Positions 23,116-64,000 of a stretch of 64,000 nt of DNA are shown here, piece after piece; positions within the stretch are counted from its first letter, which is position 1, and the number at the start of each line of letters is the position of its first letter. The notes under the pieces were generated by a model that worked only from the letters and a program-made list of their open reading frames with translations, did no database searches and had not been told where the DNA came from. The position numbers and the translations under genes were made by a program. The DNA comes from Candidatus Fervidifonticultor secundus (GTDB lineage Bacteria > Sysuimicrobiota > Sysuimicrobiia > Sysuimicrobiales > Humicultoraceae). The stretch is taken from positions 320,001 to 384,000 of the forward strand of contig JAVKIP010000001.1 in the NCBI GenBank assembly GCA_031459385.1, given 5' to 3'.

Positions 23116-23140
23116 CCCCACCGGCAGGGAGGACAGAGCC

Positions 23141-44185: not shown

Positions 44186-44192
44186 ACCCACT

Positions 44193-44561: not shown

Positions 44562-44635
44562 CTCCCGGAGGCGACCGGCGCCGTCCTCCCACGCGTCGGT
44601 GCGCCGGGAGCAGACGTGCGCCGGCCTGACGCACG

Positions 44636-45364
44636 TTACGCGCCGGCCACCACGCGGTTCCGCAGCACCCCCACCCCGCCGACTTCGACCTCGACCACGT
44701 CGCCTGGCTGCAGGGGTCCCACCCCCTTCGGCGTGCCGGTGGCGATGACATCGCCGCGCTCGAGGGTCATGATGGACGAGACGACCTCGATGAGCGTCGG
44801 CACATCGAAGATCATGGAGCGCGTGTTCGACGACTGCTTCGTCTCGCCGTTGACCCGCGCCGCCAGGTCGAGGGCGCCCGGATCGACGCCGGTGACGATC
44901 CACGGGCCGAGTGGTGCCGAGGCGTCGAAGGCCTTGGCGCGCACCCACTGCTGCTCTGTCCGCTGGACGTCACGCGCGGTGATGTCGTTGAACGCGGTGT
45001 AGCCCCAGACGACGTCCAGGGCCCGGGCGCGGGGCACCCGCCGGCACCGCTGGCCGATGACCACCGCCAGTTCCGCCTCGTACTCCAGCTGGCGCGTGTG
45101 TGGGGGGTAGGGGATCGGCGCGTCGTGTCCGACCAGGGCGCTGGGCGGTTTGAGGAACAGCAGCGGCTCCGCCGGCGGTTCCCATGCCAGCTCGGCGGCG
45201 TGGTCTTGGTAGTTGAAGCCCACGCAGATGATCTTGGTGGGCACGCACGGCGGGGCGAAGGTCGCCCCGGTGACGGGCAGGCGCACGTCGCCGGCGACGA
45301 CGACCTCGCCCTCGACACGGGCGTCGAGCACTGCGTGGTTGTGGACGATGCGTGCGTGGATCAT
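44636..45364 (-). CDS. Fumarylacetoacetate hydrolase family protein
   Basis: KIICVGFNY.DHA.E, LFLKPP, EYEAEL, NDITARD, AKAFD, GDVIATGTP; SD AGGAGG. Confidence 0.92.
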   Translation of the reverse strand: MIHARIVHNHAVLDARVEGEVVVAGDVRLPVTGATFAPPCVPTKIICVGFNYQDHAAELAWEPPAEPLLFLKPPSALVGHDAPIPYPPHTRQLEYEAELAVVIGQRCRRVPRARALDVVWGYTAFNDITARDVQRTEQQWVRAKAFDASAPLGPWIVTGVDPGALDLAARVNGETKQSSNTRSMIFDVPTLIEVVSSIMTLERGDVIATGTPKGVGPLQPGDVVEVEVGGVGVLRNRVVAGA

Positions 45365-45401
45365 GCGCGCGTACCCTCCTGATCTGTGGCCGGCCGCGCG
45401 C

Positions 45402-47390
45402 TCAACGCAGCAGGACCCCGGCCGGCCAGCGCAGATCGAACCCCAGACCCAGCAGGTGGACGAAGCCGAGTGCCGCCAGCGCGTAGGCTGCGGCAGCCAG
45501 CGCGCGCAGCCCGGCCACCCGCCAGAGGAACAGCAGGACGAACACGAACGACGCCGCGTGGAACCCCAGCAGCCAGACCAGCGCCAGGTAGGCGGCGATG
45601 ACGCCGAACCGGCGCGCCTCCCGACCGGCGTCGGCGCCCGCGTCCGCCGGCGCACCGTCCTCCGCGGCATCGTCGGGGGGCCCGGGTACCTCGCCCCGCA
45701 CCGCCCGGACGGTCTGCAGCGCGGCCAGCGCGAGTCCCGGGACGCCGGCGAGCAACGGCATCAGCCGGGCGTCGAACTGGAAGCCTGCGCCCTGGCCGAC
45801 GCCGACGGCGAAGACGGCCAGCGCGGCCAGCGCCATGGCCACCGGGACCGCGGACGCCGGGCCGCGCGCCGGCACGGCCATGGACGGTGGCGCGCCCGCC
45901 GGCGACTGTGCGGCGTCCGGGACGACGCGGGCTCCCCAAAGGCGCCTCACCGCGCCCAGCACGAACGGCGCGGCCACCAGCGCGCCGATCGCCAGCACCC
46001 CCGGATAGCCCAGCCACCGCCAGCCGTGCAGCTTGACCGTGAGCCAGAAGTACCGCTCCATCGGCTTGGCCAGCACGAAGCCGATGAGCAGCGGGGCCCG
46101 CGGCCACCCCGAGCGTTTCATCGCCCAGCCGAGCAGGCCGAGCAGCAGCAGGGCGAGCAAGTCGCCGGCGTGGCGCGTCGACTGATAGGCGCCCAGCACC
46201 ATGGTCACCAGCAGCGGCGGGGCCACGAGCGCGAAGGGCACGTGCGTGACCCGCGCCAGTCCGGGGCTCAGCAGGAAACACAGCGCGGCGCCCAGGATGT
46301 TGGCCAGCGCGAAGGACCAGACGATGACGTAGACCACGTCCAGGTGTTCCTGGACGAGCCGCGGGCCGGGGTAGATGCCGTAGGCGTACAACGCGCCCAG
46401 GATGACCGCGGCGGCCGGACCGCCCGGCACGCTGAAGAGCAGCGTCGGGATCAGGTCGCCGGCGGCGGCGGCGTTGTTGGCGCTCTCGGGCGCGATGATC
46501 CCGCGCACGTCGCCCCTGCCGAAGCGGCCGCGGTCGCGGCTGGCGGCCACGGTGTGCCCGTACGACATCCACGCGGCCGCGGTGGCGCCGATGGCGGGCA
46601 GCACCCCGGCCCAGATGCCGATCAACGCACCGCGCAGCACCAGCCACCGGTGCGCGACGACATCCCGGACGCCGTCGCGCCAGCCGCCGCCCAGCCCGAC
46701 CTCCCGCGCAATGGCGCCGCCGCGCGCCAGCAGCGTGACGATCTCCGCGATCCCGAAGACGCCCAGCGCCAGCACCACCAGCGAGAGGCCGTCCAGCAGG
46801 TAGAGCTGGCCGAACGTGTACCGGAACTCGGCCGCGGCCGGCGCCGGGCCGACCAGGCCGAGCAATACACCCAGCAGCCCGGCCAGCAGCCCCTTCACCG
46901 CCGACCGGCCCAGCAGGCTGCCGGCGTACGCCACGCCCAGCGCCGTGAACATGAACAACTCGGGCGAGCCGAGCAGCATCACCAGCGGCCGGGCGATGGG
47001 GATGGCCAGCGTGAGCCCCACGACCCCCAGGAAGCCGCCGATCAGCGACGAGAGGAACGCGGCCGCCAGGGCCCGCGCGGCCTGCCCCTGCCGGGCCAGG
47101 GCGTGGCCCTCGATGGCGGTGGGTGCCGCGGCGGGCGAGCCAGGCGTGCCCACCAGCACCGAGGTGATCACGTCGCCGGTGTAGACGACCGCCAGCGCGC
47201 CCGTCAGCATCGCCAGCGCGGTGGTGACGTCGAGGCGAACGATCAGGGGGAGGAGGACCGAGACCGCCACGATGCCGCCCAGCCCGGGCAGCAGGCCGAC
47301 GGCGAGCCCGGCGAGCACGCCCACCGCCAGCAGCCCCAGCCGGGCAGGGCTGGCGAACGTCTGGAGCGCTGCGAGCGCCGCGTCAAGCAC
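45402..47390 (-). CDS. tctA: Tripartite tricarboxylate transporter permease, TctA with fused TctB-like C-terminus (copy 1)
   Basis: GLLPGLGG, GTPGS, APESANNA, LIPTLLFSVPG, PRAPLLIGFVL; about 150 extra aa with 4-5 TM. Confidence 0.85.
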   Translation of the reverse strand: MLDAALAALQTFASPARLGLLAVGVLAGLAVGLLPGLGGIVAVSVLLPLIVRLDVTTALAMLTGALAVVYTGDVITSVLVGTPGSPAAAPTAIEGHALARQGQAARALAAAFLSSLIGGFLGVVGLTLAIPIARPLVMLLGSPELFMFTALGVAYAGSLLGRSAVKGLLAGLLGVLLGLVGPAPAAAEFRYTFGQLYLLDGLSLVVLALGVFGIAEIVTLLARGGAIAREVGLGGGWRDGVRDVVAHRWLVLRGALIGIWAGVLPAIGATAAAWMSYGHTVAASRDRGRFGRGDVRGIIAPESANNAAAAGDLIPTLLFSVPGGPAAAVILGALYAYGIYPGPRLVQEHLDVVYVIVWSFALANILGAALCFLLSPGLARVTHVPFALVAPPLLVTMVLGAYQSTRHAGDLLALLLLGLLGWAMKRSGWPRAPLLIGFVLAKPMERYFWLTVKLHGWRWLGYPGVLAIGALVAAPFVLGAVRRLWGARVVPDAAQSPAGAPPSMAVPARGPASAVPVAMALAALAVFAVGVGQGAGFQFDARLMPLLAGVPGLALAALQTVRAVRGEVPGPPDDAAEDGAPADAGADAGREARRFGVIAAYLALVWLLGFHAASFVFVLLFLWRVAGLRALAAAAYALAALGFVHLLGLGFDLRWPAGVLLR

Positions 47391-47470
47391 GGCGCGCTGT
47401 CGACGCGCCCGGCGTAGCGGTGGAAGCCACGCGCCCGGGCACTGTCACTGCGCGCGGCCAGGGCCGCACG

Positions 47471-48595
47471 CTAGAACCGCACGTTGTACTTCTCCCGCAG
47501 CAGGTCGGCGATCCACTTCTGCACGTCCAGCGTCGGCCGCATCGCCTTGCGCACGCCGGCTTCCACCTGGTCGCCGCGCCGCAGCAGGTAGCCGCCGGTG
47601 ACGCTCTTCGCCCGCTCCTTGAACTCGGGATCGGCCACGATGCGGTCGATGGCCTCGTTGATGGCGCGCAGCGCCGCGTCGGGCGTCCCCTCCGGCGCCC
47701 ACCAGGTGAGTCCGTAGGTGAACGTCAGGGACGACGCGGCCTCGTAGGCCCGCCAGCGCGGCCCTGCCGGCCGGCTTTTGTAAAGGTCGCGGTAGACCTC
47801 GAACGTCGAGGGGAGATCGGCGACGACCGGATCGCGCAGGACCAGTTCGCCGCGCTCGTTGGGGAAGCCGCCGGTGAAGAGGGGCACGGCCTTGCCGTCC
47901 TTGACCAGCGGCACCACCTGGGTCAGGTAGACCGGCGTGAACTGGAAGTCCAGGTTGGTCTCGCCGCGCTCGAACGCGAGCCGGATCGGTCCCCGCCCCT
48001 CGAACCCCAGCACCACCTTGACGGGCAGGCGCAGCAGCTCGAACGCGATCAGCACGGGCAGGTCGCTCCCGGTCGCTGCGATGCCGCCGTAGACCAGCGG
48101 CTCCGCGGGCTTCAGCAGGTCGGCGGCTTTGCGGACGCCGGTCTTCGGCGCGACGTAGACCACGGGCCCGAACGCCAGCGTCATCGCCACGCGCATCTTC
48201 GCCAGGTCGTAGCGGGCCGAGGGGTGGCCGAACATCCAGGGGAAGACCGTGGACGAGGTGGTGCACATCAACATCAGCCCGTCGGGCTTGGCGTTGGCCG
48301 CGAAGAACGACGCGCCGAGCATCGAGCCGCCGCCTGGCACGTTGCGCACGGTCACGCGCGGCCCCCCGGCCAGGTGCTTCTCGAGGAACGGTGCAACGAA
48401 GCGCGCCCCCACGTCGGCCGCGCCGCCTGGCGCGAACGGCACGATGACCTCGATGGTCTTGCCGGCGTAATAGGGCGCCTGGCCGCGGGCGGGTCCGACG
48501 ACCGCGGCGAGCAGACCGGCGAGCGCGATGAGGAAGCCGGCGCGGGCGCTCCGGCCCCGCCGTGCGGCGGGTGTGGGCGCTGTCAGGGTCTGCAT
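47471..48595 (-). CDS. tctC: Tripartite tricarboxylate transporter substrate-binding protein (Bug/TctC, copy 1)
   Basis: Signal peptide, GKTIEVIVPFAPGGAAD, NVPGGGS, KPDGL, LAFERGE. Confidence 0.85.
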   Translation of the reverse strand: MQTLTAPTPAARRGRSARAGFLIALAGLLAAVVGPARGQAPYYAGKTIEVIVPFAPGGAADVGARFVAPFLEKHLAGGPRVTVRNVPGGGSMLGASFFAANAKPDGLMLMCTTSSTVFPWMFGHPSARYDLAKMRVAMTLAFGPVVYVAPKTGVRKAADLLKPAEPLVYGGIAATGSDLPVLIAFELLRLPVKVVLGFEGRGPIRLAFERGETNLDFQFTPVYLTQVVPLVKDGKAVPLFTGGFPNERGELVLRDPVVADLPSTFEVYRDLYKSRPAGPRWRAYEAASSLTFTYGLTWWAPEGTPDAALRAINEAIDRIVADPEFKERAKSVTGGYLLRRGDQVEAGVRKAMRPTLDVQKWIADLLREKYNVRF

Positions 48596-48694
48596 GGATC
48601 CGTCACCTCCGCCAGATCTCCCGGGCGCGGGCCCGGGACCGTCACACAGCAGATCTCCCGGGCCAGGGCCCGGAGCCGTGACGCTGCCCCGGGG

Positions 48695-49834
48695 TCACCC
48701 TTCCTCCAGGATGTCCAGCGTGCCCTCGAACCGGTCGACCAGGTAGATCCGCCCGCCGGCGTCCACGTAGACGTCGTTGGACTGCGGCCGGCCCGTGGCC
48801 ACCGCGGGCACGTACCACGCGACCTCCTGCGGCCGGAACGGGTCCCGGATGTCCACCACCCGCAGCCCGCCCGCGAAGTACGTCAGGTAGATGCGCTCCT
48901 CGCTCTGGAAGCCGCCGGGCCGGTTCTCGTGGATGTTGTGCGGGCCGAAGCGGAAGGCGGGGTCCGCCAGGCCCTCGGGGTCGACGCGGAACGCTGCGAC
49001 GGGGATGGGGTTGCGCTCCTCGCGGACGTCGACGATCCACATGTACTTCTCGCGGTCGGTGCCCTCGCGCCAGGGCCGCAGCCCTTCCTGCGTGCAGATC
49101 ACCAGCCGGCGGCCTGGCAGCGGCAGCGCCGTGTGCAGCATGTCGCCAAACGGCGGGTGGAACGTGTGGCGGGTCACCAGGCGCGGCTGCGCCCAGGACG
49201 TCATGTCGAGAATCGCCCACCCCCAGTCCACGCAGCCCACGTAGCACCGGCTGCCCACCACGAAGGGCGCGCCGTGGACACGCACGCGCCAGTGCCGTGG
49301 CCAGTCGGGCACCTCGCCGCCCGCGGCGTGCTGGCCGGGGATCCACCACCGGCCGACTTCCTCGGGCCGGTCGGGCCGGGCCAGGTCCACGATCCGGTAG
49401 ATCTGGTCCGTGTAGCCGTCGGCACCGGCCGACAGGTGCGCGTATCGGCCGTCGGTGAACCAGAAGCGGTGCACGCCAGGCCCGCCGGTGCGGAAGACCG
49501 CCAGCTCGCGGGGCCGCGCGGGATCCTGCACGTCGTAGATCCCGATCCCGGCGGTGAACTCCGTCCCGGTGTAGCCGGGCAAGCGTTCGTAGTTCACGAC
49601 CATCAGGCCGCCGGCCACCTGGACCTTGTGCATGTGCGTGTTGGGCGGGCACGGGAGCTGCGCGACGACCCGCGGCCTGCGAGGATCGCGCACGTCCACG
49701 ATAGTCGTGCCCACCTGGGCCATGGGCGCGATGTAGGCGAACCCGCCGTCGACCAGCACCTGCCCGGCGCCCACCGGGCCGTAAGGCGTCCGGCTGATGA
49801 GCCGGAGGTTGTGCAGACGACCGTCCTGCGTCAC
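48695..49834 (-). CDS. LVIVD-repeat beta-propeller protein
   Basis: Repeats TIVDVRDP, IYDVQDP, RIVDLARP, ILDMTS, WIVDVREE, LRVVDIRDP; no signal peptide. Confidence 0.82.
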   Translation of the reverse strand: MTQDGRLHNLRLISRTPYGPVGAGQVLVDGGFAYIAPMAQVGTTIVDVRDPRRPRVVAQLPCPPNTHMHKVQVAGGLMVVNYERLPGYTGTEFTAGIGIYDVQDPARPRELAVFRTGGPGVHRFWFTDGRYAHLSAGADGYTDQIYRIVDLARPDRPEEVGRWWIPGQHAAGGEVPDWPRHWRVRVHGAPFVVGSRCYVGCVDWGWAILDMTSWAQPRLVTRHTFHPPFGDMLHTALPLPGRRLVICTQEGLRPWREGTDREKYMWIVDVREERNPIPVAAFRVDPEGLADPAFRFGPHNIHENRPGGFQSEERIYLTYFAGGLRVVDIRDPFRPQEVAWYVPAVATGRPQSNDVYVDAGGRIYLVDRFEGTLDILEEG

Positions 49835-49907
49835 GACTGTGCCTCCTCTGTTCGGGGGGTGGTATCGACGCGGCGGCTGCGGTGCCGGCGCGCCGTCCCG
49901 TCAGGGC

Positions 49908-51836: not shown

Positions 51837-51884
51837 GGCGGCACCGCGCGCCCGCGCGCGGCGACGGGCCGGGGGCGGGGCACA

Positions 51885-53027
51885 TCAGATCGCCTGTCCG
51901 TACTTCGTCTGCATCAGGTCGCGGATGAATTTCACGACGTCGAGGGTGACCCGCAGGCCGCGGTGGACCGTGGCCTCGACCTGATCGCCGCGCAGCAGCG
52001 CGTAACCCTCCAGCAGCCGCCGTGCCTGCTCCTGGAACTCGCGGTCACGGTTCATCCGGTCGATGGCCTGGTGCAGCTCGCGCATCACCTCGGGCGGCGT
52101 GCCCTCCTGCGCCCACAGGCCCCGGCCGTAGACCCAGGCGGCCGCGAACGTGGCCCGGAACGCCTTCCATCGCAGCAGCCCGTCGGGCCTCTTCCCGTGG
52201 AGCTGCTGGTAGACCTCGTAGACCGTGGGCAGGTCAGGTAGCGCGGGGTCGCGCACGACCTCGCCCTTCTCGTTGATGTAGCCCAGCGACATGAGCGGGA
52301 TGGCCTTGCCCTCGCGCACGAGCGGCGCGACCTGCGTGACGTAGACGATCGTGGACTGGAAGTCCAGGTTGAGTTCGCCGCGCTCGAAGGCCAGCCGCGC
52401 CGGGCCCACGCCCTCGAACCCGAAGACGACGCGGGGATGGAGCCCCAGCAGTTCGTAGGCCAGCAGGGCCGTGACCACGTTGCCCGGCGGCGACGGGCTG
52501 CCCGCGACCAGGTCGCGCGCCCTGGCCAGGTCGGCGGCCGCGCGGATGCCGGTGCGGGGCGAGACATAGAAGACGCCGCCCGAACCGCTGATCGCCACCA
52601 GCTTGAACCGCCGGAAGTCGTAGCGCACCGCGGGGTTCTGGATGATGTAGGCGATCTTGGAGCCCACGGGACTTGCCAGCAGCGTCAGCCCGTCGGGTCG
52701 GGCGTTGGCGGCGAACCAGTTGCTGCCGAGAATGGTGCCCCCGCCGGGGATGTTGCGGATGCGCACCGCGGGGTTGCCGGCGATGTGCTTCTCGAGAAAC
52801 GGCGCAAACGCCCGGTTCAAGATGTCGGTGGGACCGCCCACGGCCGTGGGAACCACGATCTCGATGGTCTTCCCCGCGAAGTAGGGGGCCTGGCCCAGGG
52901 CGGGCACGCCCGCGAGCAGGGCCGCAGCCACTGTCACGGCCACGGGCACGGCCGGGCGCACGCCCCGCGCCACGGTCAGGGTCACGCCCCGCGCCAGGGC
53001 CAGGGCCACGGTGGTCAGGGACCGCAT
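51885..53027 (-). CDS. tctC: Tripartite tricarboxylate transporter substrate-binding protein (Bug/TctC, copy 2)
   Basis: QAPYFAGKTIEIVVP..GGPTD, NIPGGG, RPDGL, LAFERGE; SD GGAGG before ATG 53027. Confidence 0.85.
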   Translation of the reverse strand: MRSLTTVALALARGVTLTVARGVRPAVPVAVTVAAALLAGVPALGQAPYFAGKTIEIVVPTAVGGPTDILNRAFAPFLEKHIAGNPAVRIRNIPGGGTILGSNWFAANARPDGLTLLASPVGSKIAYIIQNPAVRYDFRRFKLVAISGSGGVFYVSPRTGIRAAADLARARDLVAGSPSPPGNVVTALLAYELLGLHPRVVFGFEGVGPARLAFERGELNLDFQSTIVYVTQVAPLVREGKAIPLMSLGYINEKGEVVRDPALPDLPTVYEVYQQLHGKRPDGLLRWKAFRATFAAAWVYGRGLWAQEGTPPEVMRELHQAIDRMNRDREFQEQARRLLEGYALLRGDQVEATVHRGLRVTLDVVKFIRDLMQTKYGQAI

Positions 53028-53032
53028 GGTCG

Positions 53033-55354: not shown

Positions 55355-56631
55355 ACGCCGGCCACGAGCAGGTCGAGCGGCACCTGGCTGCCGAGCCGCT
55401 CGGCGCCCGTTTCGGTGATGATGAACGTGTGGCCGAAGAACAGCCCCAGCAGCCCGTCGGGGGTGATGAGGTTCGGCTCCAGCATCACCGTCATGCCCGG
55501 TTTCATCACCATGTCGTTGGGGTCGCCGTGCGCCCCGTCCACCCGCACGTCGGGCGCGTGCGTGACCAGATCCAGGCTGTGCAGGATGATCGGCCGCGAC
55601 TGGTAGCCGCGCGCGCGGAAGAAGCCGGCGTGCCGGGCCATGGCCTGGAACGTGTTGCCCGGCCGCAGCTCGGCCGCCAGCGTCTGAAACCCCGGCAGCA
55701 CCACCTCGTCGAAGATCCGGCGGACGTGGCCGGTGGGGGGCCCGACGCAGATCGGCACGCCCATCTGGGCCGTGTAGCCCTCGTAGCCCGCAGCCACCTC
55801 GTTGAGGACGATGTCGCCCCGCTGCAGGCGCCGGCCCGAGGGCCGCGGGTTCCCGAAGACCATGCGCGGGTCGTCCATGGGCGTGGCGCCGACGATGACG
55901 AAGTCCAGCTCGCCGCCGCCCTGGAGCATGGCGGCGGCAGCCGCGGCCTTCAGCTCCCACTCGGCGGCCCCGGGCCGCGCGGCGTCGGCCATGGCCAGCA
56001 GAGCCCGCGCGCAGAGCTCGCCGGCCTTGCGCACGCGGGCCAGCTCCTCGGCGCTCTTCACCACCAGGAACTCGTGGAAGAAGTCGCCCACGAACTCCAG
56101 CGTGGCATCCGGCAGGGCCCGCGCCAGCGTCACGTACTGGTTCACCGGCAGATAGTCGTTGTAGCGCGGGTCGGCCACGGTGATACCGATGCGTCCGCGC
56201 TCGATGCCCGCCTCCTTGATGCACGTGGCCAGCACCTCGCCGAACTGCCCCCGGGGGGCCGGGCGTACGTCGCGCACGGCCACGGCCCGGCGCGTGGCCT
56301 CGATGTGGGTGCCGCCCATGCCGTAGAGCAGCGTGGGCTCGCCCTCGCGAGGGACGAAGAGGTAGGTGCACATCGCATGCCACTCCCGGTGGTTCGCAAG
56401 CCACAAGACGCCGCCCCCGTACGACCAGTGGCTGGGCCCGCCGCAGACGATCAGACCATCGAGGCCCAGGCGCCCCATCTTGGCGCGCGTCAGGTCGAAG
56501 CGCCGCCGGTGCTCGGCGTCGGAGAAGCGATCGTAGACCGCATCGGTGTAGTACGGTGAATTGATGAAGTCAGCGAAGTGCCTGGGGTCGTCCAGCGACG
56601 TCCGCACGGCCTCGAACTCAAACGGTGCCAC
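55351..56631 (-). CDS. M24 (pita-bread)-fold protein with non-canonical metal site
   Basis: RFSDAEHRRR N-terminus, VKSAEEL..VRKA, LNEV..YEGYTAQ, LHSLDL, MLEPN, FFGHTFIITETGAERL. Confidence 0.82.
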   Translation of the reverse strand: MAPFEFEAVRTSLDDPRHFADFINSPYYTDAVYDRFSDAEHRRRFDLTRAKMGRLGLDGLIVCGGPSHWSYGGGVLWLANHREWHAMCTYLFVPREGEPTLLYGMGGTHIEATRRAVAVRDVRPAPRGQFGEVLATCIKEAGIERGRIGITVADPRYNDYLPVNQYVTLARALPDATLEFVGDFFHEFLVVKSAEELARVRKAGELCARALLAMADAARPGAAEWELKAAAAAAMLQGGGELDFVIVGATPMDDPRMVFGNPRPSGRRLQRGDIVLNEVAAGYEGYTAQMGVPICVGPPTGHVRRIFDEVVLPGFQTLAAELRPGNTFQAMARHAGFFRARGYQSRPIILHSLDLVTHAPDVRVDGAHGDPNDMVMKPGMTVMLEPNLITPDGLLGLFFGHTFIITETGAERLGSQVPLDLLVAGV

Positions 56632-56682
56632 TGCTCACCTCCGCGCCATGGGGCGGGGCTCGCCGCCCGGGTCCGGGCTAGG

Positions 56683-57513
56683 TCAATCGTCGCGGCCCTG
56701 GTACTGCCAGGGGGCGACCTTGCCTTCCAGCCACCGCAGCCCCTGCACCAGCGTCACGCCCAGCAGCGACAGGGGCAGGATACCCACGAACATCTGGTCG
56801 ATGCGTACGTGCTGTTGCGCCCGCATGATCAGATAGCCGATCCCCGAGACGGCCACGTAGAGATCGGAGATCAGCATACCGACCAACCCACGCCCGATGG
56901 CCAGCCGCAGCCCGGCCACGATGAACGGCAGGGACGAGGGGATGATGACGTCTCCCCACAGGGCCCGCTCGGAGCTGCGGAACGACCGGGCGACCTCCAG
57001 CAGCCGCGCTTCGACGCTCTTCACGCCCTGGTAGGTGTTGAGCAGAATGGGAAACAGCGCGAAGAGGAAGATGACGGCGGCCTTGGCCCGCAGCCCCAGC
57101 CCGAACCACACGATCACCAGCGGCATCAGGGCCACCGTCGGCGTGGAGTAGAGGGCGATCATCATCGGCTCCAGCGAGAGGTCCAGGACGCGGAAACGCG
57201 CCATGGCCACGCCCACGGCGACGCCGGCGGCGGCGCCCAGGCTGAGGCCGACGACGAAGACCTTCAGGCTCTCGCCGAGATAGCGCCCGAGCTCGCCCGA
57301 GCCGATCATCTGCACCGCCGCCCCGGCGATGCGCGAGGGTGGCGCGAACAGGAACGGGCTCATCCGCTGGCCCACGAGCTCCCAGAGCACGAGCACCACC
57401 GCCACGGCCGCCACGCGCACGCCGCTGTCGCGCAGTGCCTGCCGCTGTTGCAGCCGCGCCGCCGCGGCACGAGCCGTCGCCCGGCGTTCCAGTTCGAGGG
57501 CCACGTTGGACAC
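56683..57513 (-). CDS. ABC transporter permease (NitT/TauT family)
   Basis: APPSRI, P.VALMPLVIVWFG, LLEVARSF, PSSLPFIVAGLRL; GTG start after GGGAGG. Confidence 0.9.
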   Translation of the reverse strand: MSNVALELERRATARAAAARLQQRQALRDSGVRVAAVAVVLVLWELVGQRMSPFLFAPPSRIAGAAVQMIGSGELGRYLGESLKVFVVGLSLGAAAGVAVGVAMARFRVLDLSLEPMMIALYSTPTVALMPLVIVWFGLGLRAKAAVIFLFALFPILLNTYQGVKSVEARLLEVARSFRSSERALWGDVIIPSSLPFIVAGLRLAIGRGLVGMLISDLYVAVSGIGYLIMRAQQHVRIDQMFVGILPLSLLGVTLVQGLRWLEGKVAPWQYQGRDD

Positions 57514-57532
57514 GGGTCTCACCCTCCCTGGC

Positions 57533-58300
57533 TCACTGGATCTCCTGACGCAGCAGCTCCCACAGGCGGGTCCGCAGCTCGCCAAACGCGGGGTCGGCCC
57601 GCGTCGCCGAGAGCCGCCGTGGGCGGGGGAACGGGACCGGCACGATCTGCTTCACCCGTCCCGGTCGTGCCGTCAGCACAATCACCCGGTCGCCGAGCAG
57701 GATGGCCTCGTCGATACTGTGGGTGACAAAGACGATCGTCTTCTGCTCTTCTTCCAGGATGCGCAGCGTCTCCTCCTGGAGGAGCTCGCGCGTCTGCGCG
57801 TCCAGCGCCGCGAAGGGTTCGTCCATCAGCAGGACCTCCGGGTCCATCGCCAGCGCTCGCGCCAGCCCCACGCGCTGCTGCATGCCACCCGAGAGCTGAT
57901 ACGGGTAGACGTGCTCGAATCCCTCGAGCCCCACCAGCTTCAACACCCGCTGCACCCGGGCCTCGATCAGGTCCCGGGGCGCGCCGGTGAGCTTGAGGCC
58001 GTAGGCGGTGTTGGCTCGCACGGTCTTCCACGGGAAGAGCCCGAAGTGCTGGAAGACCATGGCGACGTTGGGCGGCGGCGCCGTGACCACGGCGCCGTCG
58101 ATGGTGATCCTGCCCTCCGTCAGGGGCACCAGGCCGTCGAGGGCCCGCAGCAGCGTCGTCTTGCCGCAGCCGCTGGGGCCCACGATGCACGCGATCTCGT
58201 TCTCGTAGACCTCCAGGGTGACGCGATCCAGCGCGAGCACCGCGCCGCCCAGAAAGGTGCGCGTCGCGTTCTCGACCCGGATCTTCACCCGTCCCGCCAC
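57533..58300 (-). CDS. ABC transporter ATP-binding protein (NitT/TauT family)
   Basis: GPSGCGKTT, LFPWKTV, LSGGMQQR, LLMDEPFAALD, VTHSIDEA. Confidence 0.95.
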   Translation of the reverse strand: MAGRVKIRVENATRTFLGGAVLALDRVTLEVYENEIACIVGPSGCGKTTLLRALDGLVPLTEGRITIDGAVVTAPPPNVAMVFQHFGLFPWKTVRANTAYGLKLTGAPRDLIEARVQRVLKLVGLEGFEHVYPYQLSGGMQQRVGLARALAMDPEVLLMDEPFAALDAQTRELLQEETLRILEEEQKTIVFVTHSIDEAILLGDRVIVLTARPGRVKQIVPVPFPRPRRLSATRADPAFGELRTRLWELLRQEIQ

Positions 58301-58301
58301 G

Positions 58302-59357
58302 CTACTGGCACCCCTGCGAGGTCGGCACCGGCCCGCCCGCCCGGCGCAGCGCCTCGTTGGCGATGGACATGTCGAGGAGCTGGGGGGCCTGGTAGCGCTG
58401 CTTCATCTCGCCGCCCTCGTAGCTGTAGTCGATCGTCCACTGGATGCGCCTGGCGTCCAGGCCCAGGTTGCGCGACCAGACGCAGCGCGCGATCATCTGC
58501 GCGTAGGCGTATCCGGCGTCCATCTCCTCGGCGCCGGTGAGCTTCACCAACGCCCGCACCGCCTCGGCGCGGTTGTTCACGGCGTGCCGCACGGCCAGGA
58601 TCGACGCGGCAACCAGGTCGATGATGGCCTCGCGGTTGCGCTCCACGACGCTGCGCATGGCGCAGTAGACGTGATACTGGTAGTGGGGCAGCGCATTCTG
58701 CAGGTCGAAGATCACCCGGGTGCCGGGCACCTGGCGCAGCAGCCGGCTGGCCTGCTCGTAGTGGAAGATGGCGGTGTCGGTCTGCCCCGAGATCAGCGAC
58801 GGCACCCGCCCGGCCGTGGTGGTCTGGACGATGGTGACCTCCTCCGGCCGGAGGTTGGCCGCGGCCAGCACGGCCCGGTTCATGCGGTCGATGAACCCGC
58901 CGGGGGCACTGGACATGCCGATCTTCTTGCCCCGCAGGTCCTTGATGTCCTTGATGGGGTCGCGTGCGACCATGACCACCGGCAGCTTGGGTGCTCCGCC
59001 CCAGAAGCCCACCAGCGGCACGCCGTTGCCGAAGGCGTTTACGCAGTCCAGCGTGCCCACCTGCACGTCACCGGCAATGGCCGCCGTCAGCGCCCGCGTC
59101 GAGCCCTCGAAGTTCTTGATCTCCAGGTCGATGTTGAACCTGTCGGCGAAGCCGAACTCTTTGGCCAGCGCCATGGGCGTGTGCACCACGTTGGGCGGCG
59201 CCACCGGCATGCCCAGCACGATCTTCCGCTTGGGCCCAGGCGCCGGGTAGGTCGGCTGTCCGGATCCAGCCGGGGCCGCGTGCGCGGCCGGCAGCACCGG
59301 GGCGACCGCCGCCGCCACCACCAGCAGGGCCACGAGCCGTCGCAGGCGTTCTCGCAT
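58302..59357 (-). CDS. ABC transporter substrate-binding protein (NMT1/SsuA/TauA-like)
   Basis: Signal peptide, IKDIKDLRGKKIG, RVPSLISGQTD; adjacent to TauT-type ATPase/permease. Confidence 0.85.
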   Translation of the reverse strand: MRERLRRLVALLVVAAAVAPVLPAAHAAPAGSGQPTYPAPGPKRKIVLGMPVAPPNVVHTPMALAKEFGFADRFNIDLEIKNFEGSTRALTAAIAGDVQVGTLDCVNAFGNGVPLVGFWGGAPKLPVVMVARDPIKDIKDLRGKKIGMSSAPGGFIDRMNRAVLAAANLRPEEVTIVQTTTAGRVPSLISGQTDTAIFHYEQASRLLRQVPGTRVIFDLQNALPHYQYHVYCAMRSVVERNREAIIDLVAASILAVRHAVNNRAEAVRALVKLTGAEEMDAGYAYAQMIARCVWSRNLGLDARRIQWTIDYSYEGGEMKQRYQAPQLLDMSIANEALRRAGGPVPTSQGCQ

Positions 59358-59377
59358 CGTCCTCCTCCCTTCCCGCA

Positions 59378-60616
59378 TCAGCGGGTGACGTAGTACTGCA
59401 CCGGCAGCCGGTGCAGGCACTCGGCGCCGGTGGCCGTGATCAGGAACAGGTTCCCCACCTGGACTCCCGCGCGCTCGTCGGGCGTGACCACGTTGGGCTG
59501 GACGACCACGCACATGCCTGCTTCGAACGTGAACGGATCGTGCGGCCCATCGGCGGTGCGTCGGGTGCGTACCGACGGCGGCAGCAGCCCCACCACGAAG
59601 CCGTGCAGGACGCTGTCGTTGATGGTGAAGCCGGCCTCGTGGATCACCTCTGCGGCGTTCAGGACCTCTTCGACGGTCGCGCCGGGGCGCAGCACGGCCA
59701 CGCAGCGCGTGTACGCCTCGAGCGCCACGTCCCAGAGCCGCCGGTGGAGGGCGTTGGGTTCGGCCTGCACGAAGATCGGCCGGTGCATCTGCCCGGAGTA
59801 GCCCCAGTACGAGATGCTGACCTCGCAGTTCACCACGTCGCCACGGGTCACCACCCGGTCGGAAAGGTTCTGCCGGGGCACACAGACAGTGGAGGCGTCC
59901 TGCGGTGTCGACGACAGGTAGACCAGGTGCACCAGGCCGCCGGCTGCCCGCCCGGCGGCTTCCACCAGGGCGCCGAGCTCCATCTCGCGCAGCCCCGGGC
60001 GCACCCCGTCGATCAGTGCCTGCACGGCACGGTCGGTCAGCGCAGCGCCCCGACGGACCCAGGCGATCTCTTCATCGCTCTTCACCAGGCGCAGGCGCCG
60101 GACCGCCCGCGAGATGTCACGGAACGCCCACCCGGGCAGCAGGCGCTGCCAGGTCAGGTACGCCTGCACGGGCACCGGGCCCGCGTAGCCCAGGATGCCG
60201 GGGCCGGTGTGCAGCGTGCGCACGTACTGCGCCACGGCCGCCGTCGAGTCGGGCCCGCCCCAGCGGGCCTCGATGACAGCCGCCTCCCGGGCGTTGGGCA
60301 CGTGGTTGTGGGTCTGGACGAAGGCCACCGGCGGGTCGGCGTGGCCTACCACCACGTAGCAGTACCGGTTGGGGAGGAAGCCCGACAGCCACAGCACGTC
60401 GGCCTGACCGTGCCGGTTCAGCGACGAGTCACCGTAGACCACCAGGACGTCGGCACCTTCCTGCACCATCGCCGCGCGGGCTGCGGCGTGCCGGCGGGCG
60501 AACTCCTCCGGTGAGAAGCGTGGGTAGAGCTCGCGTCCTTCCGTGGCGGCGTGGGCGCGCCCGGATCTCTTCCGAGTGGTGGGGGGCGTGGCGCCTCCCG
60601 CGCGACGGGAGCGCAT
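59378..60616 (-). CDS. M24 (pita-bread)-fold protein with non-canonical metal site (second paralog)
   Basis: YPRFSPEEFARR, LVKSDEEI..VRRG, NCEV..YWGYSGQ, LHGF, VVQPN, VQVGNLFLITATGAECL; TGATG overlap. Confidence 0.82.
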   Translation of the reverse strand: MRSRRAGGATPPTTRKRSGRAHAATEGRELYPRFSPEEFARRHAAARAAMVQEGADVLVVYGDSSLNRHGQADVLWLSGFLPNRYCYVVVGHADPPVAFVQTHNHVPNAREAAVIEARWGGPDSTAAVAQYVRTLHTGPGILGYAGPVPVQAYLTWQRLLPGWAFRDISRAVRRLRLVKSDEEIAWVRRGAALTDRAVQALIDGVRPGLREMELGALVEAAGRAAGGLVHLVYLSSTPQDASTVCVPRQNLSDRVVTRGDVVNCEVSISYWGYSGQMHRPIFVQAEPNALHRRLWDVALEAYTRCVAVLRPGATVEEVLNAAEVIHEAGFTINDSVLHGFVVGLLPPSVRTRRTADGPHDPFTFEAGMCVVVQPNVVTPDERAGVQVGNLFLITATGAECLHRLPVQYYVTR

Positions 60617-62502
60617 CAGCTCTGGGGCGCCGGGTGGTCCACAGCAGGCGCCAGGGTGGGGTGGGCGACCCTGCGGCGCTGACGCAGCGTGACGGCGCCG
60701 ACCAGCACGGCGGCGGCTGCCCACGCCTCGGGCCGCGGGATGTACCCCAGGACGCCCGCGACAGCCAGCACCACCCATTCCAGCAGCGTGGTGCCGGTGA
60801 CCAGGTAGGCCGTCGCCACGGCGGCAAAGACGATCGTACCCAGCGTGGCGGCGGTGATCGCTGCAGCGTTCTCCCACACCGACCCCGTCAGCAGCAGGTG
60901 GGTGTAGGCGAAGAGCACCGGCATGATGTAGATGATCTTGGCGAAGCGGAAACAGTTCCACCCGGCGCGCATGGGATCGGCCCGGGCGATAGCCGCAGCG
61001 GCGAAGGGGCCCAGGGCCACCGGCGGGGTGATGTTGGAGTCCAGGCTCAGCCAGAAGACGATCATGTGGGCCACCAGCAGCGGCACGCCTAGCTCGCGCA
61101 GGACCGGCACTGCGATCACCGCCACGATGAGGTAGGTGGCGGTGATGGGCAGGGCCAGCCCCAGCACCAGGGTCGACACCGCTACCAGCAGCAGCGTCAG
61201 CCAGAGCTTGCCTTCCGCCAGGGCGACCACGATGTACGAGAACCGAATGCCGATGCCGGTCAGGGCCAGCACGCCGATGACAATGCCCACCGCCCCGGTG
61301 AGCGCCGCCACGAAGAGAGACGACCGCGCCCCCTCCACCAGGGCGTCCCAGATTGCCCGCACCCCCATGCGGGTCTCGCGTCGCACCCAGCTCACGGCCA
61401 CCGTGGCTAGAATGGCGTACACGGCCGCACGTTCGGTGGAGACGTGCGCCATCAGCAGCGCGATCAGCACCGCCACCGGGAGAAAGAGATACCACCCGCG
61501 GCGCAGCGTAGGGCCCAGTGGCGGGAGCTCGTGGGCGGGCAGGCCGCGCAGCCCCAGCTTGCGCGACTCGAAGTACACCATGAGGCCCACCGAGAAGAAG
61601 TAGAGCAGCCCCGGAATAGCGGCGATCTTGACGATCTGCGGGTAGGCGCTGTTCGTCATCTCCGCCATGATGAACGCGCCGGCACCCATCACCGGCGGCA
61701 GGACCATCGCCCCGGTGGACGCGGCGCCTTCCACCGCGGCGGCGATGTGAGGCGGGAAGCCGGCCTGCTTCATCAGCGGAATGGTGATGGTGCCGGTGGT
61801 GACGGTGTTGGCTACCGGACTGCCCTGGATCGTGCCCAGCAGGGCACTGGAGACCACCGCGGCGTGGGCCGGACCGCCGGCGAAACGGCCGAACAGGGCC
61901 AGGGAGAGGTCGATGAACACCCGGGCGGCCCCGGCCCGCTGCAGGAACGCGCCGAACACCACGAACGGAATGATGAACTGAGCCAGGACCTCGGCCATCA
62001 CACCGAAGATGCCGTCGGAGGTCAGGTAGAGGTACTCGATCACCCGCCGGAGCGTGAACCCCCGGTGACCGACGATAGGCGGCAGGGCGTGGCCGAACAG
62101 GGCGTAGGCGATGGGCACCAGGGCTGTCAGGGCCATGCTCCATCCCAGCACCCGACGCGCCGCCTCCACGGCGATCGCGGTGACCACTACCCCCAGGGCG
62201 ACGTCGACGGTCGTGTAGGCACCCGCGCGGTACGCCATCGCCTCGTGCTCGACGATCCAGTAGGCCACGCCCGCCACCGCCACGGCGGCCAGGATCAGGT
62301 CCACGACCGACGGCGCGTCCTCCCGGTCGCGCTGCCACCCGCGGTAAAGCAACAGGGGTACGACCAGGCTGTAGAGCACGGCGATGCCGCGGTAGTACTG
62401 TAGCGACGCCGTGCCGTACCAGGCCAGCCAGAGGTAGTAGAGCGAGGTGGCGCCCAGGAGGATCTGGACGACAGCGTCCCACCGTCTGGCCAGGGTCCGC
62501 AC
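60616..62502 (-). CDS. TRAP transporter fused 4TM/12TM permease (TAXI-associated)
   Basis: DGIFG, GGPAHAAVVSS, GSPVANTVTTG, ASTGAMVLPPVMGAGAF, ITPPVAL. Confidence 0.92.
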   Translation of the reverse strand: MRTLARRWDAVVQILLGATSLYYLWLAWYGTASLQYYRGIAVLYSLVVPLLLYRGWQRDREDAPSVVDLILAAVAVAGVAYWIVEHEAMAYRAGAYTTVDVALGVVVTAIAVEAARRVLGWSMALTALVPIAYALFGHALPPIVGHRGFTLRRVIEYLYLTSDGIFGVMAEVLAQFIIPFVVFGAFLQRAGAARVFIDLSLALFGRFAGGPAHAAVVSSALLGTIQGSPVANTVTTGTITIPLMKQAGFPPHIAAAVEGAASTGAMVLPPVMGAGAFIMAEMTNSAYPQIVKIAAIPGLLYFFSVGLMVYFESRKLGLRGLPAHELPPLGPTLRRGWYLFLPVAVLIALLMAHVSTERAAVYAILATVAVSWVRRETRMGVRAIWDALVEGARSSLFVAALTGAVGIVIGVLALTGIGIRFSYIVVALAEGKLWLTLLLVAVSTLVLGLALPITATYLIVAVIAVPVLRELGVPLLVAHMIVFWLSLDSNITPPVALGPFAAAAIARADPMRAGWNCFRFAKIIYIMPVLFAYTHLLLTGSVWENAAAITAATLGTIVFAAVATAYLVTGTTLLEWVVLAVAGVLGYIPRPEAWAAAAVLVGAVTLRQRRRVAHPTLAPAVDHPAPQS

Positions 62503-62622
62503 CGGCGTGTCCGCTCCCGGCCTAGCCCACGCCGAAGGTCGTGCGGCGGTCCGCTGGGACCCCGCAGGTTACCGCACGAGGCTGCCCGTCTCCCACGTGG
62601 GGTGCCACCTCGCCCGTCTCAG

Positions 62623-63618
62623 TCAGCGCGCCCGGATCGCGTCGGGGATCTCCAACCCCACCGTCCGCCAGTGGGCCTCCGCGCCGCGGTGCAGCGGGAT
62701 CGTGATGCCCTGCAACGCCTGGCGGGGCCGCATGTCAGCCGATGCCGAGTGGACCCGCAGCATGTGCTCGTGGCCCCTGGTGCTGTAGGCCGCCGCGACG
62801 ATGGTCTGCACGAGCGGCGCCGGTACGTCTGCGTGGGCCAGCCACAGCAGCGGGACGCCCAGCGCCGGCACGGGCTCGGTCACCCCGGGATACCCACCAG
62901 GGGGGAAGACGTACCGGGAGTAGTAGGGAAACTGGCGCAGGAAGCCGGCGGCCACCGCCGGCGTGTACACGTCGATCATCCGGATCGGCTTGACCGAGGC
63001 CGCTTCGATAGTGCCGCGGTCGGGGTAGGGACCCGTGAAGAAGAACGCGTCGACGCGGCCGTCCTGGAGCGCCTGGCTGGCCGCCGCGCCCAGGAGCGGC
63101 ACACGCGTCAGGCGATCCCAGATGCCGATGGCGCGGAAGGCGCGCTCGGCCGTGGCAAACGTCCCCGAGCCGGGCGTGCCTACGGCGATGCGCTTGCCGG
63201 CCAGGTCGGTGGCCGTGCGGATGCCGCTGTCCTGATACGTGACCACGTGCGAGGCACCGATGAAGATCAGACCCAGGGCTCGCAGGTTGGTGTGGGGATT
63301 GCCGCGGAAGATCTCCAGGCCGTGGTAGGCTTCGTGGGCGTCGGACGCGAAGGCCAGCCCCATCTCGGCGTTCTTCGCCTGGAGCCGCCGGACGTTCTCG
63401 GTGGAGCCGCCGGTCGCCGCCACGGACACGTCGACCTCGGCTACGGCGCCGTTGAGGAACGTGGCGATGCCGGTGGCGAAGATGCCGAAGACGCCGGCGG
63501 GGGGACCGCCGAGCATGGTTATGCGGACCTTGGGCGCGGCCAGCACTGGCCCGGGCGCCGGCGCTGTCAGGAGCGCGACCAGGGCGAGGAGCGCAGCGCC
63601 TTTCCACAGCGTGCTCAT
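62623..63618 (-). CDS. TAXI family TRAP substrate-binding protein
   Basis: Signal peptide, GGPPAGVF, ATGGSTENV, DLAGKRIAVG.PGSG, IPLHRGA; SD AGGAGG. Confidence 0.9.
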   Translation of the reverse strand: MSTLWKGAALLALVALLTAPAPGPVLAAPKVRITMLGGPPAGVFGIFATGIATFLNGAVAEVDVSVAATGGSTENVRRLQAKNAEMGLAFASDAHEAYHGLEIFRGNPHTNLRALGLIFIGASHVVTYQDSGIRTATDLAGKRIAVGTPGSGTFATAERAFRAIGIWDRLTRVPLLGAAASQALQDGRVDAFFFTGPYPDRGTIEAASVKPIRMIDVYTPAVAAGFLRQFPYYSRYVFPPGGYPGVTEPVPALGVPLLWLAHADVPAPLVQTIVAAAYSTRGHEHMLRVHSASADMRPRQALQGITIPLHRGAEAHWRTVGLEIPDAIRAR

Positions 63619-63632
63619 CCATGCACCTCCTG

Positions 63633-64000
63633 TCATGATGCCTTTACGCCGCCACCACGATCGGCTCGAAAGGCACCCGGTGCAGGCGCTCGAACCTCTG
63701 GTGCGGCCAGCGTCTCCTTCATCCAGTCGGCCACGAGCGGCCGGTACTTGTACGGGATGTTGTTGCAGACGTGGTTCCCCTCGGGGTACATCACCAGCCG
63801 CGCGCACGGCGCTTCGGCCGCCACGCGCTCGGCATGCTGCCAGGGGATGAGGCGGTCCTGCCGGCCGAAGACGACCAGCAGCGGCTGGCGCAGGCGCGGC
63901 AGCACCGGGCCCAGGTCGAGCTGCAGCGCGCGCTGGCGGGCCTCGACCTCGCTTGTAGCCCCGCTGTGGTGGCGGAACGTCTCGCGCGAGTGCGGCGGCA
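63633..64000 (-). CDS. alpha/beta hydrolase, 2,6-dihydroxypseudooxynicotine hydrolase-like (C-terminal part; truncated by window end)
   Basis: PLLVVFGRQDRLIP (acid) and EGNHVCNNIPYKYRPLVADWM (His), matching the recalled C-terminal pattern of DHPON hydrolase. Confidence 0.7.
   Translation of the reverse strand, partial: PPHSRETFRHHSGATSEVEARQRALQLDLGPVLPRLRQPLLVVFGRQDRLIPWQHAERVAAEAPCARLVMYPEGNHVCNNIPYKYRPLVADWMKETLAAPEVRAPAPGAFRADRGGGVKAS

Follow-up and report, generated by a model that had tools for sequence, protein, structure and literature searches.

The gene clusters for the degradation of picolinate (pic) and nicotinate (nic) combine molybdenum-dependent hydroxylation beside the ring nitrogen with a decarboxylase of the Amidohydro_2 type (PicC), a hydrolase of the alpha/beta type and an enzyme of peptidase fold that does not act on peptides (NicX), and both NicX and PicD are metal-dependent enzymes of a peptidase fold other than M24. 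Another described system is the nicotine 'pyridine pathway' of Paenarthrobacter nicotinovorans, in which the gene of the 2,6-dihydroxypseudooxynicotine (DHPON) hydrolase adjoins the molybdenum large-subunit gene kdhL on pAO1 (PMC6122326). The present study concerns a 64,000-nt stretch (hereafter the window) of contig JAVKIP010000001.1 (contig C1) of Candidatus Fervidifonticultor secundus (genome G000; 3.3 Mb, 59 contigs, about 72% GC), and within it the run of minus-strand genes at positions 44636-64000, which includes a molybdenum-hydroxylase large subunit (g07), two proteins of the M24 fold (M24a, g08; M24b, g12) and a DHPON-type hydrolase (g15). This island is real and modular, and its backbone is a widely conserved operon. 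We consider that the run represents the downstream half of a modular catabolic island of at least 30 kb, composed of the backbone operon and of additions acquired by the lineage and dedicated to (N-hetero)aromatic or aryl-ketone chemistry, a reading to which we give a probability of roughly 0.55; judging from the gene content, a catabolic role on a hydroxylated (N-hetero)aromatic compound is plausible.

The locus resembles pAO1 in the linkage of a molybdenum large-subunit gene to a DHPON-type hydrolase gene, and differs from it in several respects: an M24 gene stands between the two in the conserved operon, the flavoprotein (g16) is CrtI-like and not monoamine oxidase-like, an ACMSD-type decarboxylase (g17) and an EamA permease (g18) belong to the operon, and neither a nicotine dehydrogenase nor a 2,6-dihydroxypyridine hydroxylase was seen here. 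The same enzyme logic is shared with the pic and nic clusters; unlike those systems, however, the M24 proteins of this locus appear to have no dinuclear site, its hydrolase belongs to the DHPON type and is not a deformylase, and no amidase or maleate isomerase was seen. The first-pass annotation of this DNA had not recognised the gene set from any described pathway, and no description was found in the searchable literature, subscription-only papers (including the 2011 paper on the cad genes of chloranilic-acid degradation) lying outside that search: no paper there brought together a DHPON hydrolase, molybdopterin and M24, and nothing relevant was returned on creatinase/xanthine-dehydrogenase/amidohydrolase pyridine gene clusters or on dihydroxypyridine ring opening. 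The backbone operon is widespread but undescribed.

A metagenome scan based on the M24 alignment returned at least 603 pattern matches, and 80 loci were kept in two subsets, namely 71 loci in which the M24 protein is less than 55% identical to g12 and nine in which it is 59-71% identical. Counting only loci with room on the contig, and taking directly upstream to mean on the same strand at less than 400 nt, a DHPON-type hydrolase was found directly upstream of M24 in 41 of 55 loci of the larger subset, and a CoxL-type gene followed within 5 kb downstream in 27 of 46, with 21 of these 27 being at least 50% identical to g07. Over all 80 loci, many of them on short contigs, AmOx was present in 22, Amidohydro_2 in 20, EamA in 16 and LivF in 15. 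Five loci of lower GC content carry a different CoxM-L-S set after M24, and the accessory genes vary among the metagenome loci (a zinc-dependent alcohol dehydrogenase, small cupins and a creatininase-family protein). The backbone operon is not peculiar to one hot-spring metagenome-assembled genome (MAG), given that at least 497 of the metagenome stretches encode relatives and that the gene order is kept at GC contents of 51-76%.

The comparison was extended to 61 related genomes, the source genome counted in, of which 48 hold a g07 orthologue (at least 59% identity), 16 an orthologue of the LVIVD protein g04 (at least 74%) and 13 an orthologue of M24a (at least 68%). The g07 orthologues form one clade, separate from the 12 paralogues of the source genome. 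Their neighbourhoods (20 loci in 19 related Armatimonadota genomes) contain an M24 of the non-metal M24a/M24b type in 12/19 and a DHPON-type hydrolase in 13/19; in three of these 13 (L073, L076 and L077) the hydrolase is a 44-49% identical paralogue situated within a cassette of NMT1-type ATP-binding cassette (ABC) importer genes and M24a. The recurring order is CoxL-M24-abH-(AmOx)-Amidohydro_2-EamA, where abH is the alpha/beta hydrolase, and a block of E2, a third M24 (M24c), E1 and dehydrogenase genes often adjoins it. Testing the enzymes for co-conservation had been suggested in the first-pass annotation, and the molybdenum subunit, M24 and the hydrolase do co-occur far beyond this genome, whereas the tail of LVIVD, FAH and tripartite tricarboxylate transport (TTT) genes and the M24a/NMT1-ABC genes are separable from them. 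The suggestion of reading past position 64000 was also fruitful, and the conserved heart of the operon was found there (flavoprotein, ACMSD-type decarboxylase and EamA).

The assignment of g15 to the DHPON type, already made in the first-pass annotation, is correct, because the full protein matches PDB entry 2JBW, the DHPON hydrolase itself, over almost its entire length (E 1.6e-49, residues 12-383 on 24-373) and its triad of Ser (in GxSxG), Asp and His is aligned with that of 2JBW, GVSLGG standing against GRSLGG; the nucleophile of the DHPON hydrolase is Ser217 (PMC6122326). On sequence grounds, g15 is a putative C-C hydrolase of the DHPON-hydrolase type, and its solved relatives (2JBW, AntI and the Ayg1 type) all work on aryl or polyketide ketones. 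The nearest solved relatives of g17 are ACMSD (E 5e-42), LigW (E 3e-36) and gamma-resorcylate decarboxylases. The substrate class is suggested by the combination of a DHPON-type hydrolase, an ACMSD/LigW-type decarboxylase and a molybdenum hydroxylase, together with the precedent of pAO1.

In the model that we propose, the backbone would comprise, in transcription order, EamA, the ACMSD/LigW-type non-oxidative decarboxylase, the CrtI-type flavoprotein, the C-C hydrolase, a creatinase-like M24 presumably without a dinuclear metal site, and a CoxL whose Fe-S and FAD partners would be encoded elsewhere. The lineage would have inserted into it a TAXI-type tripartite ATP-independent periplasmic (TRAP) importer and an NMT1/TauT-type ABC importer bringing its own M24 (M24a), and would have appended a tail with two importers of the TTT type, a beta-propeller hydrolase of the LVIVD family and a fumarylacetoacetate hydrolase (FAH)-family enzyme. 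Carboxylated, hydroxylated (N-hetero)aromatic or aryl-ketone compounds would be taken up, the molybdenum enzyme would hydroxylate the ring, the C-C hydrolase would remove an acyl side chain and the decarboxylase a carboxyl group, and M24 might cleave a C-N bond, be it that of an amidine, an amide or an imide. The aliphatic products could then pass to the LVIVD/FAH tail and to the upstream pyruvate dehydrogenase (PDH)-like E1/E2 and tartronate-semialdehyde-reductase-like enzymes.

The hammerhead and both molybdopterin-binding domains of g07 (PF01315, PF02738 and PF20256) are all far over their cut-offs, and the protein matches carbon monoxide dehydrogenase (CODH; 8UEM, 608 bits), quinoline 2-oxidoreductase (1T3Q, 553 bits) and 6-hydroxypseudooxynicotine dehydrogenase (7DQX, 541 bits) from end to end; by these scores it resembles KdhL no more closely than it does CODH or quinoline oxidoreductase. 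A Glu near the C-terminus is catalytic in the large subunits of xanthine dehydrogenase and CODH, and in form I CODH a loop of the pattern AYxCSFR carries the Cu-binding cysteine. The Glu of GAKGIGES in g07 is aligned with the same residue of 8UEM, and the active-site loop is PYRGAGR, as against AYACSFR in 8UEM; g07 departs from form I CODH in this loop and in its score with TIGR02416 (644 bits against a cut-off of 991). Because the Glu is kept and PYRGAGR takes the place of the Cu-cysteine loop, g07 is, by these motifs, a molybdenum hydroxylase or oxidoreductase and not a CODH. No Fer2_2 or FAD_binding_5 gene was found near g07 on its contig, and neither CoxS nor CoxM in the 20 related-genome loci around its orthologues. 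In three of the 80 metagenome loci (L122, L131 and L141) a g07-type CoxL does adjoin CoxM and CoxS, which suggests an ordinary three-subunit enzyme with partner genes elsewhere in the genome. The source genome encodes 13 large subunits against seven Fer2_2 (Fe-S) and five FAD_binding_5 (FAD) subunits, so that about half of its large subunits are 'orphans'; CoxM/CoxS pairs are encoded on contigs C59 and C24. Two more large-subunit genes are located on contig C1 at 44524-48671.

For the M24 proteins, the metal-ligand positions (D, D, H, E, E) were taken from prolidase 1PV9, with the residue numbers that we take to be those of its five ligands. At these positions M24a has E-Q-H-E-G, identical in 8/8 rows of its type, and M24b has E-Q-H-Q-G, identical in 13/13 rows (12 distinct genes), and D-D-H-E-E is kept in a canonical M24 encoded in another part of the window; E, Q, H and G are invariant across the 19-sequence M24 alignment. 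Residue H351 of g08 is aligned with the GHG histidine in the multiple alignment, and the 7-residue spacing to the next His is the same. The full set of five dinuclear-centre ligands is absent from g08 and g12, and since both bridging ligands are missing, a dinuclear metal centre in M24a and M24b is unlikely, and so is a function resembling that of a dioxygenase at the canonical site. Among PDB sequences M24b matches creatinase 1CHM (E 9e-12) and DoeA 6TWJ (E 1.4e-10), and the DoeA models of NCBIfam gave 48-73 bits with the M24 proteins against cut-offs of 575-613, no creatinase model being listed. The pita-bread fold, the Creatinase_N domain of M24b and the departure from D-D-H-E-E are shared with creatinase and DoeA; unlike these enzymes, the M24 proteins score far under the cut-offs and the genes around them share nothing with the operons for creatine or ectoine. 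It would be a long shot that the ligand-poor M24 proteins form a new enzyme class hydrolysing the C-N bond of a dihydroxy-N-heterocycle, as its cyclic imide or lactam tautomer, directly after this compound is freed by the C-C hydrolase; if they did, the M24 step would be an oxygen-independent ring fission in place of the usual dioxygenase, and the pairing and joint duplication of hydrolase and M24 would be the mark of a two-step handover.

Homologues of M24b were also searched for in plasmids, with three haloarchaeal matches at 33-36% identity. One of them (36%), on plasmid NZ_CP085340.1 of Haladaptatus halobius (L168, 112936-132090), has as neighbours an aldehyde dehydrogenase, a cysteine hydrolase, an Lrp regulator, an ABC importer, an asparaginase and two amidohydrolases; its context contains neither CoxL nor a DHPON-type hydrolase, and the annotated coding sequence is shorter than the tblastn match to M24b.

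Several observations weigh against the island as proposed. In the nine metagenome loci closest to g12, the hydrolase was directly upstream in 0/6 and CoxL downstream in 0/5 of those with room, and some g12-like M24 genes pair with M24a or with an NMT1 binding protein (L088 and L095; also L103 and L105, at 51-53% identity). The g12, NMT1-ABC and M24a genes therefore look like one cassette, which looks to be seated where the original M24 of the operon would be, and g12 may be a replacement paralogue of that M24. The congeneric genome G002 (L014/L015) is without hydrolase g15 and flavoprotein g16 at the syntenic site, and, as both TctC genes and TctAB1 are absent too, the content of the island differs within one genus. 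Besides, the related genomes are kin, hence the counts across them are not independent. Aldehyde oxidation instead of ring hydroxylation is possible for g07, considering that the NCBIfam model it matches best, glyceraldehyde dehydrogenase alpha, is that of an aldehyde oxidoreductase (699 bits; cut-off 790). The sole clear solved relative of g16 is the phytoene desaturase CrtI (4DGK, E 2.5e-19) and not a nicotine-type amine oxidase, and members of the ACMSD family also use non-aromatic substrates.

One alternative explanation takes the run for unrelated transporter-plus-enzyme modules in a nutrient-scavenging region, with no common substrate and with co-orientation due to local strand bias. Co-orientation is weak evidence alone, because all of the approximately 36 genes over the 41 kb between 44636 and the contig end are on one strand; four different uptake systems are present, and the remaining window is rich in genes for peptide and amino-acid uptake and for hydrolases. 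The module content also shifts within the genus, from the source genome to G001 and G002, in which the order is CoxL-TctAB2-LVIVD-FAH, with neither TctC gene and no TctAB1, while the arrangement in G007 is that of the source genome. We nevertheless regard this explanation as unlikely, since the backbone genes remain linked in different families and on metagenome contigs of very different GC content, and the same CoxL clade repeatedly receives different modules as neighbours. Moreover, M24 and the DHPON-type hydrolase were duplicated jointly, as in the three loci with the paralogous cassette hydrolase, and overlaps of the translational-coupling kind occur at g08/g07 (4 nt, ATGA, the g07 start lying inside the g08 stop) and at g13/g12 (1 nt, the g12 ATG at 60616 meeting the g13 stop).

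In a second alternative the compound degraded would be non-aromatic and nitrogenous (either a modified amino acid or a guanidino, amidino or cyclic-amidine solute of the kind of creatine and ectoine), with the M24 proteins as amidinohydrolases and the molybdenum enzyme as an aldehyde oxidoreductase. The M24 proteins are as similar to creatinase and DoeA as to peptidases, the top NCBIfam model of g07 agrees with such a role, the operon begins with a Liv-type ABC importer in 15 of 80 metagenome loci, PDH-like E1/E2 and tartronate-semialdehyde-reductase-like genes lie upstream, and the haloarchaeal plasmid homologue is surrounded by the aldehyde dehydrogenase, cysteine hydrolase, asparaginase and amidohydrolase genes described above. 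Against this, the hydrolase most tightly linked to M24 is of the DHPON type with its aryl- or polyketide-ketone relatives, the decarboxylase is nearest to the ACMSD, LigW and gamma-resorcylate enzymes, and matches to the DoeA models remain far below the cut-offs, all of which makes the alternative distinctly improbable.

The tail of the island deserves attention on account of the LVIVD protein g04, whose AlphaFold model is a seven-bladed propeller (pLDDT 90.4) and has the phosphotriesterase 5HRM of Sphingobium sp. TCM1 as best fold match (E 8e-15, TMq 0.70). The same protein is the best sequence match (E 6e-10; profile E 8e-16), although the profile alignment consists of only two short stretches, and 5HRM, at 19% identity, exceeds g04 in length by about 120 residues. 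An alignment of 29 g04 homologues of 43-89% identity has 45 invariant columns, among them seven His and other polar residues, and from the model g04 is a probable metal-dependent hydrolase. More distant LVIVD homologues (41-46% identity) in Alphaproteobacteria (L053, L055, L057, L059 and L047) belong to a conserved module GMC oxidoreductase-cupin-LVIVD-RidA-GST, with a cupin of about 400 aa, which is joined to NMT1-ABC, TRAP or TctC genes and is reminiscent of a lower pathway of the gentisate type to which a propeller enzyme has been added. In L045, L046 and L052 (Binataceae-type and proteobacterial MAGs) the conserved order is CoxL-amidase-UbiD-cupin-RidA-HpaB-RidA-GST-LVIVD, with a small cupin and an HpaB-type monooxygenase, and this cluster has the look of an undescribed pathway for amino- or N-heteroaromatic compounds. 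A cross-phylum link between LVIVD and CoxL was considered and rejected, as the CoxL genes of those loci group with paralogue C45 and not with g07. Among the searchable papers that mention LVIVD, only a data note was relevant, in which the LVIVD protein cadB1 is listed with the cad genes of chloranilic-acid degradation, beside an FAD oxidoreductase and a TAXI binding protein (PMC13191619); CadB1 and g04 share the LVIVD family label. By analogy, these contexts suggest that the LVIVD propeller family works in aromatic catabolism. In the ESM Atlas only generic LVIVD and M24 clusters were returned. The FAH-family enzyme g01 has the full FAA_hydrolase domain in common with HpaG and fumarylpyruvate hydrolase, and among the NCBIfam models that of the HpaG C-terminal domain fits it best (225 bits against a cut-off of 276, all equivalog models being below cut-off); g01 is a single-domain protein, and the FAH family also includes oxaloacetate decarboxylases and sugar-acid hydrolases.

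These data also bear on the interpretation first given to the run, in which all 15 genes formed one heteroaromatic or phenolic-acid pathway, the M24 pair and the LVIVD protein opening the ring instead of a dioxygenase. The claim that no cupin or VOC enzyme is visible was upheld by Pfam inside 44636-64000, and a bicupin is encoded 17 kb upstream in this genome, at window-equivalent 81158-82147; small cupins also adjoin CoxL in the related loci L134 and L097. Some arrangements agree with a single pathway: CoxL, LVIVD and FAH are contiguous in G009 and G006 (as NMT1-ABC-M24a-CoxL-LVIVD-FAH, without TTT genes), CoxL and LVIVD are so in L037, M24a adjoins a g12-type M24b in L088, L103 and L105, and the distant LVIVD homologues and cadB1 occur in clusters of aromatic type. 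The two proteins do not track each other, however, with M24a present in only seven of the 16 LVIVD genomes and LVIVD in seven of the 13 M24a genomes, and in family f5 the tail stands alone with its own GntR (FAH-GntR / TctC-like-LVIVD-TctC-TctAB-TctC-TctAB), on a contig other than that of the g07 orthologue. Given these separable modules, the different CoxL clade beside the distant LVIVD homologues and the M24 proteins without bridging ligands, neither the single pathway nor the ring-opening role found support, and we hold this interpretation to be highly doubtful.

The backbone operon is of interest for joining three poorly understood things: lone large subunits of the CoxL type, which numerous genomes hold in abundance, a conserved M24 branch that has apparently lost the dinuclear site, and DHPON-type hydrolases outside nicotine degraders. 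Identification of the substrate would give functions to several large groups of genes that now carry the label 'M24 family metallopeptidase' or that of a 'xanthine dehydrogenase family protein', and could expose a common natural compound with unaccounted turnover. Besides, the window illustrates how transporter cassettes are inserted into, and enzyme modules added onto, a conserved operon.

Codon-position GC plots and Pfam bore out the first-pass description of at least 15 consecutive co-oriented minus-strand genes of the families named, separated by at most about 120 nt. Coding on the minus strand is unbroken in 44636-64000 and continues for about 22 kb to the contig end at window-equivalent 85785, and the junctions among the 15 genes range, with the chosen starts, from the 4-nt overlap to gaps of 1-120 nt (Table 1). 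The run is ended below 44636 by a convergent plus-strand open reading frame (ORF) at 44181-44561, g01 being the last gene. The start codons of g01 (ATG 45364), g06 (ATG 53027) and g14 (ATG 63618) are preceded by AGGAGG, GGAGG and GGAGG, respectively. A scan for promoters gave no minus-strand promoter-like site, and minus-strand terminator-like sites were found only within g02 and in numbers at shuffle level, both scans being uninformative at 72% GC. A search of sequencing runs for 52000-58000 listed only DNA runs, four of them containing the stretch and perhaps being its source, and no RNA run.

Table 1. Genes of the minus-strand run from position 44636 to the contig end, in window coordinates or their equivalents beyond 64000.
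Gene and predicted product	Position	Strand	Basis
g01, FAH-family enzyme, 242 aa	44636..45364	-	Pfam FAA_hydrolase E 4e-74
g02, fused TctA-TctB membrane component, TTT system 1	45402..47390	-	TctA E 1.4e-113
g03, divergent TctC-like binding protein, TTT system 1	47471..48595	-	TctC 21.8 bits vs 27
g04, LVIVD seven-bladed beta-propeller	48695..49834	-	Pfam LVIVD PF08309, 25.6 bits vs 20.2
g05, TctA(-B) membrane component, TTT system 2, 642 aa	49908..51836	-	TctA E 1.2e-111
g06, divergent TctC-like binding protein, TTT system 2	51885..53027	-	TctC 24.0 bits vs 27
g07, lone molybdenum-hydroxylase large subunit, CoxL/KdhL type, 773 aa	53033..55354	-	three Pfam domains
g08, M24a, M24-fold protein	55351..56631	-	Peptidase_M24 PF00557 E 2.6e-26
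g09, ABC permease, NitT/TauT type	56683..57513	-	BPD_transp_1
g10, ABC ATPase	57533..58300	-	ABC_tran E 5e-34
g11, NMT1/SsuA-type binding protein	58302..59357	-	NMT1 E 5.8e-21
g12, M24b, creatinase-fold M24	59378..60616	-	Creatinase_N + Peptidase_M24 (PF00557 E 1.3e-24)
g13, fused TRAP DctQ/M permease	60616..62502	-	TIGR02123 585.8 bits vs 320.65; Pfam DctM
g14, TAXI-type TRAP binding protein	62623..63618	-	TIGR02122 195.1 bits vs 84.35; Pfam NMT1_3/TAXI
g15, DHPON-hydrolase-type alpha/beta hydrolase, C-terminal 121 aa	63633..64000	-	PDB 2JBW match of full protein
g16, CrtI-type flavoprotein	upstream of g15, beyond 64000	-	PDB 4DGK match
g17, Amidohydro_2, ACMSD/LigW-type decarboxylase	beyond 64000, after g16	-	PDB matches
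g18, EamA permease	beyond 64000, after g17	-	
PDH-like E2	beyond g18	-	
M24c, third M24	L003:6687-8000, window-equivalent 69687-71000	-	between E2 and E1 beta
E1 beta, E1 alpha of PDH-like complex	beyond M24c	-	
Tartronate-semialdehyde-reductase-like dehydrogenase, GntR/FCD regulator	beyond E1 alpha	-	
DUF6282, RidA, Liv-type ABC system, bicupin, SDR, amidohydrolase, TctC-like	farther toward contig end	-	

The transporter genes of the run differ in how closely they follow known models. Both components of the TAXI-TRAP transporter g13-g14 exceed curated cut-offs. The ABC permease g09 is closest to the NCBIfam models SaoP, SsuC and TauC, every one below cut-off, and g11 reaches 71.9 bits with SsuA_fam, under the cut-off of 163.5. 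In the TTT systems, the TctB part of g02 (27.0 bits, Pfam cut-off 29.1) and both TctC calls rest on adjacency to TctA, because their scores fall below the Pfam thresholds; g03 has orthologues of 84-88% identity in L017 and L019, and the C-terminal 200 aa of g05 gave no Pfam match, so that TctB was undetected there. The window end cuts g15, the full gene extending to window-equivalent 64829.

Among the genes beyond 64000, M24c has the metal-ligand signature D-C-H-E-E and is 79-85% identical across several families, being better conserved than the CoxL-operon genes next to it. With NCBIfam it scores best against the model of DddP, a dimethylsulfoniopropionate (DMSP) lyase (125 bits, cut-off 600), and its top PDB matches, 4S00 and 4B28, are both titled only 'Peptidase M24' and are presumably the same lyase. 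Closer to the contig end, at L067:953-2346 (window-equivalent 82953-84346), an Amidohydro_1-type gene appears as two adjoining ORFs, with a 156-aa N-terminal and a 289-aa C-terminal part, possibly as a result of a frameshift, an assembly error or an ORF-calling artefact.

Another part of the genome repeats the same gene associations in a paralogous set: on contig C12, at about 95648-112523, an Amidohydro_2 paralogue (43% identical to g17) adjoins an M24 with E-Q-H-E-G, and ten kb further on E1 alpha/beta adjoin a CoxL paralogue (47% identical to g07). In the remaining window, an Opp/Dpp-type peptide ABC operon ends, at 27720-29793, with the canonical PepQ-like M24 (D-D-H-E-E) and a carbon-nitrogen hydrolase, and a D-glutamate-cyclase-like gene and a pyridoxal phosphate-dependent enzyme lie behind a GntR/UTRA regulator at 22021-24196.

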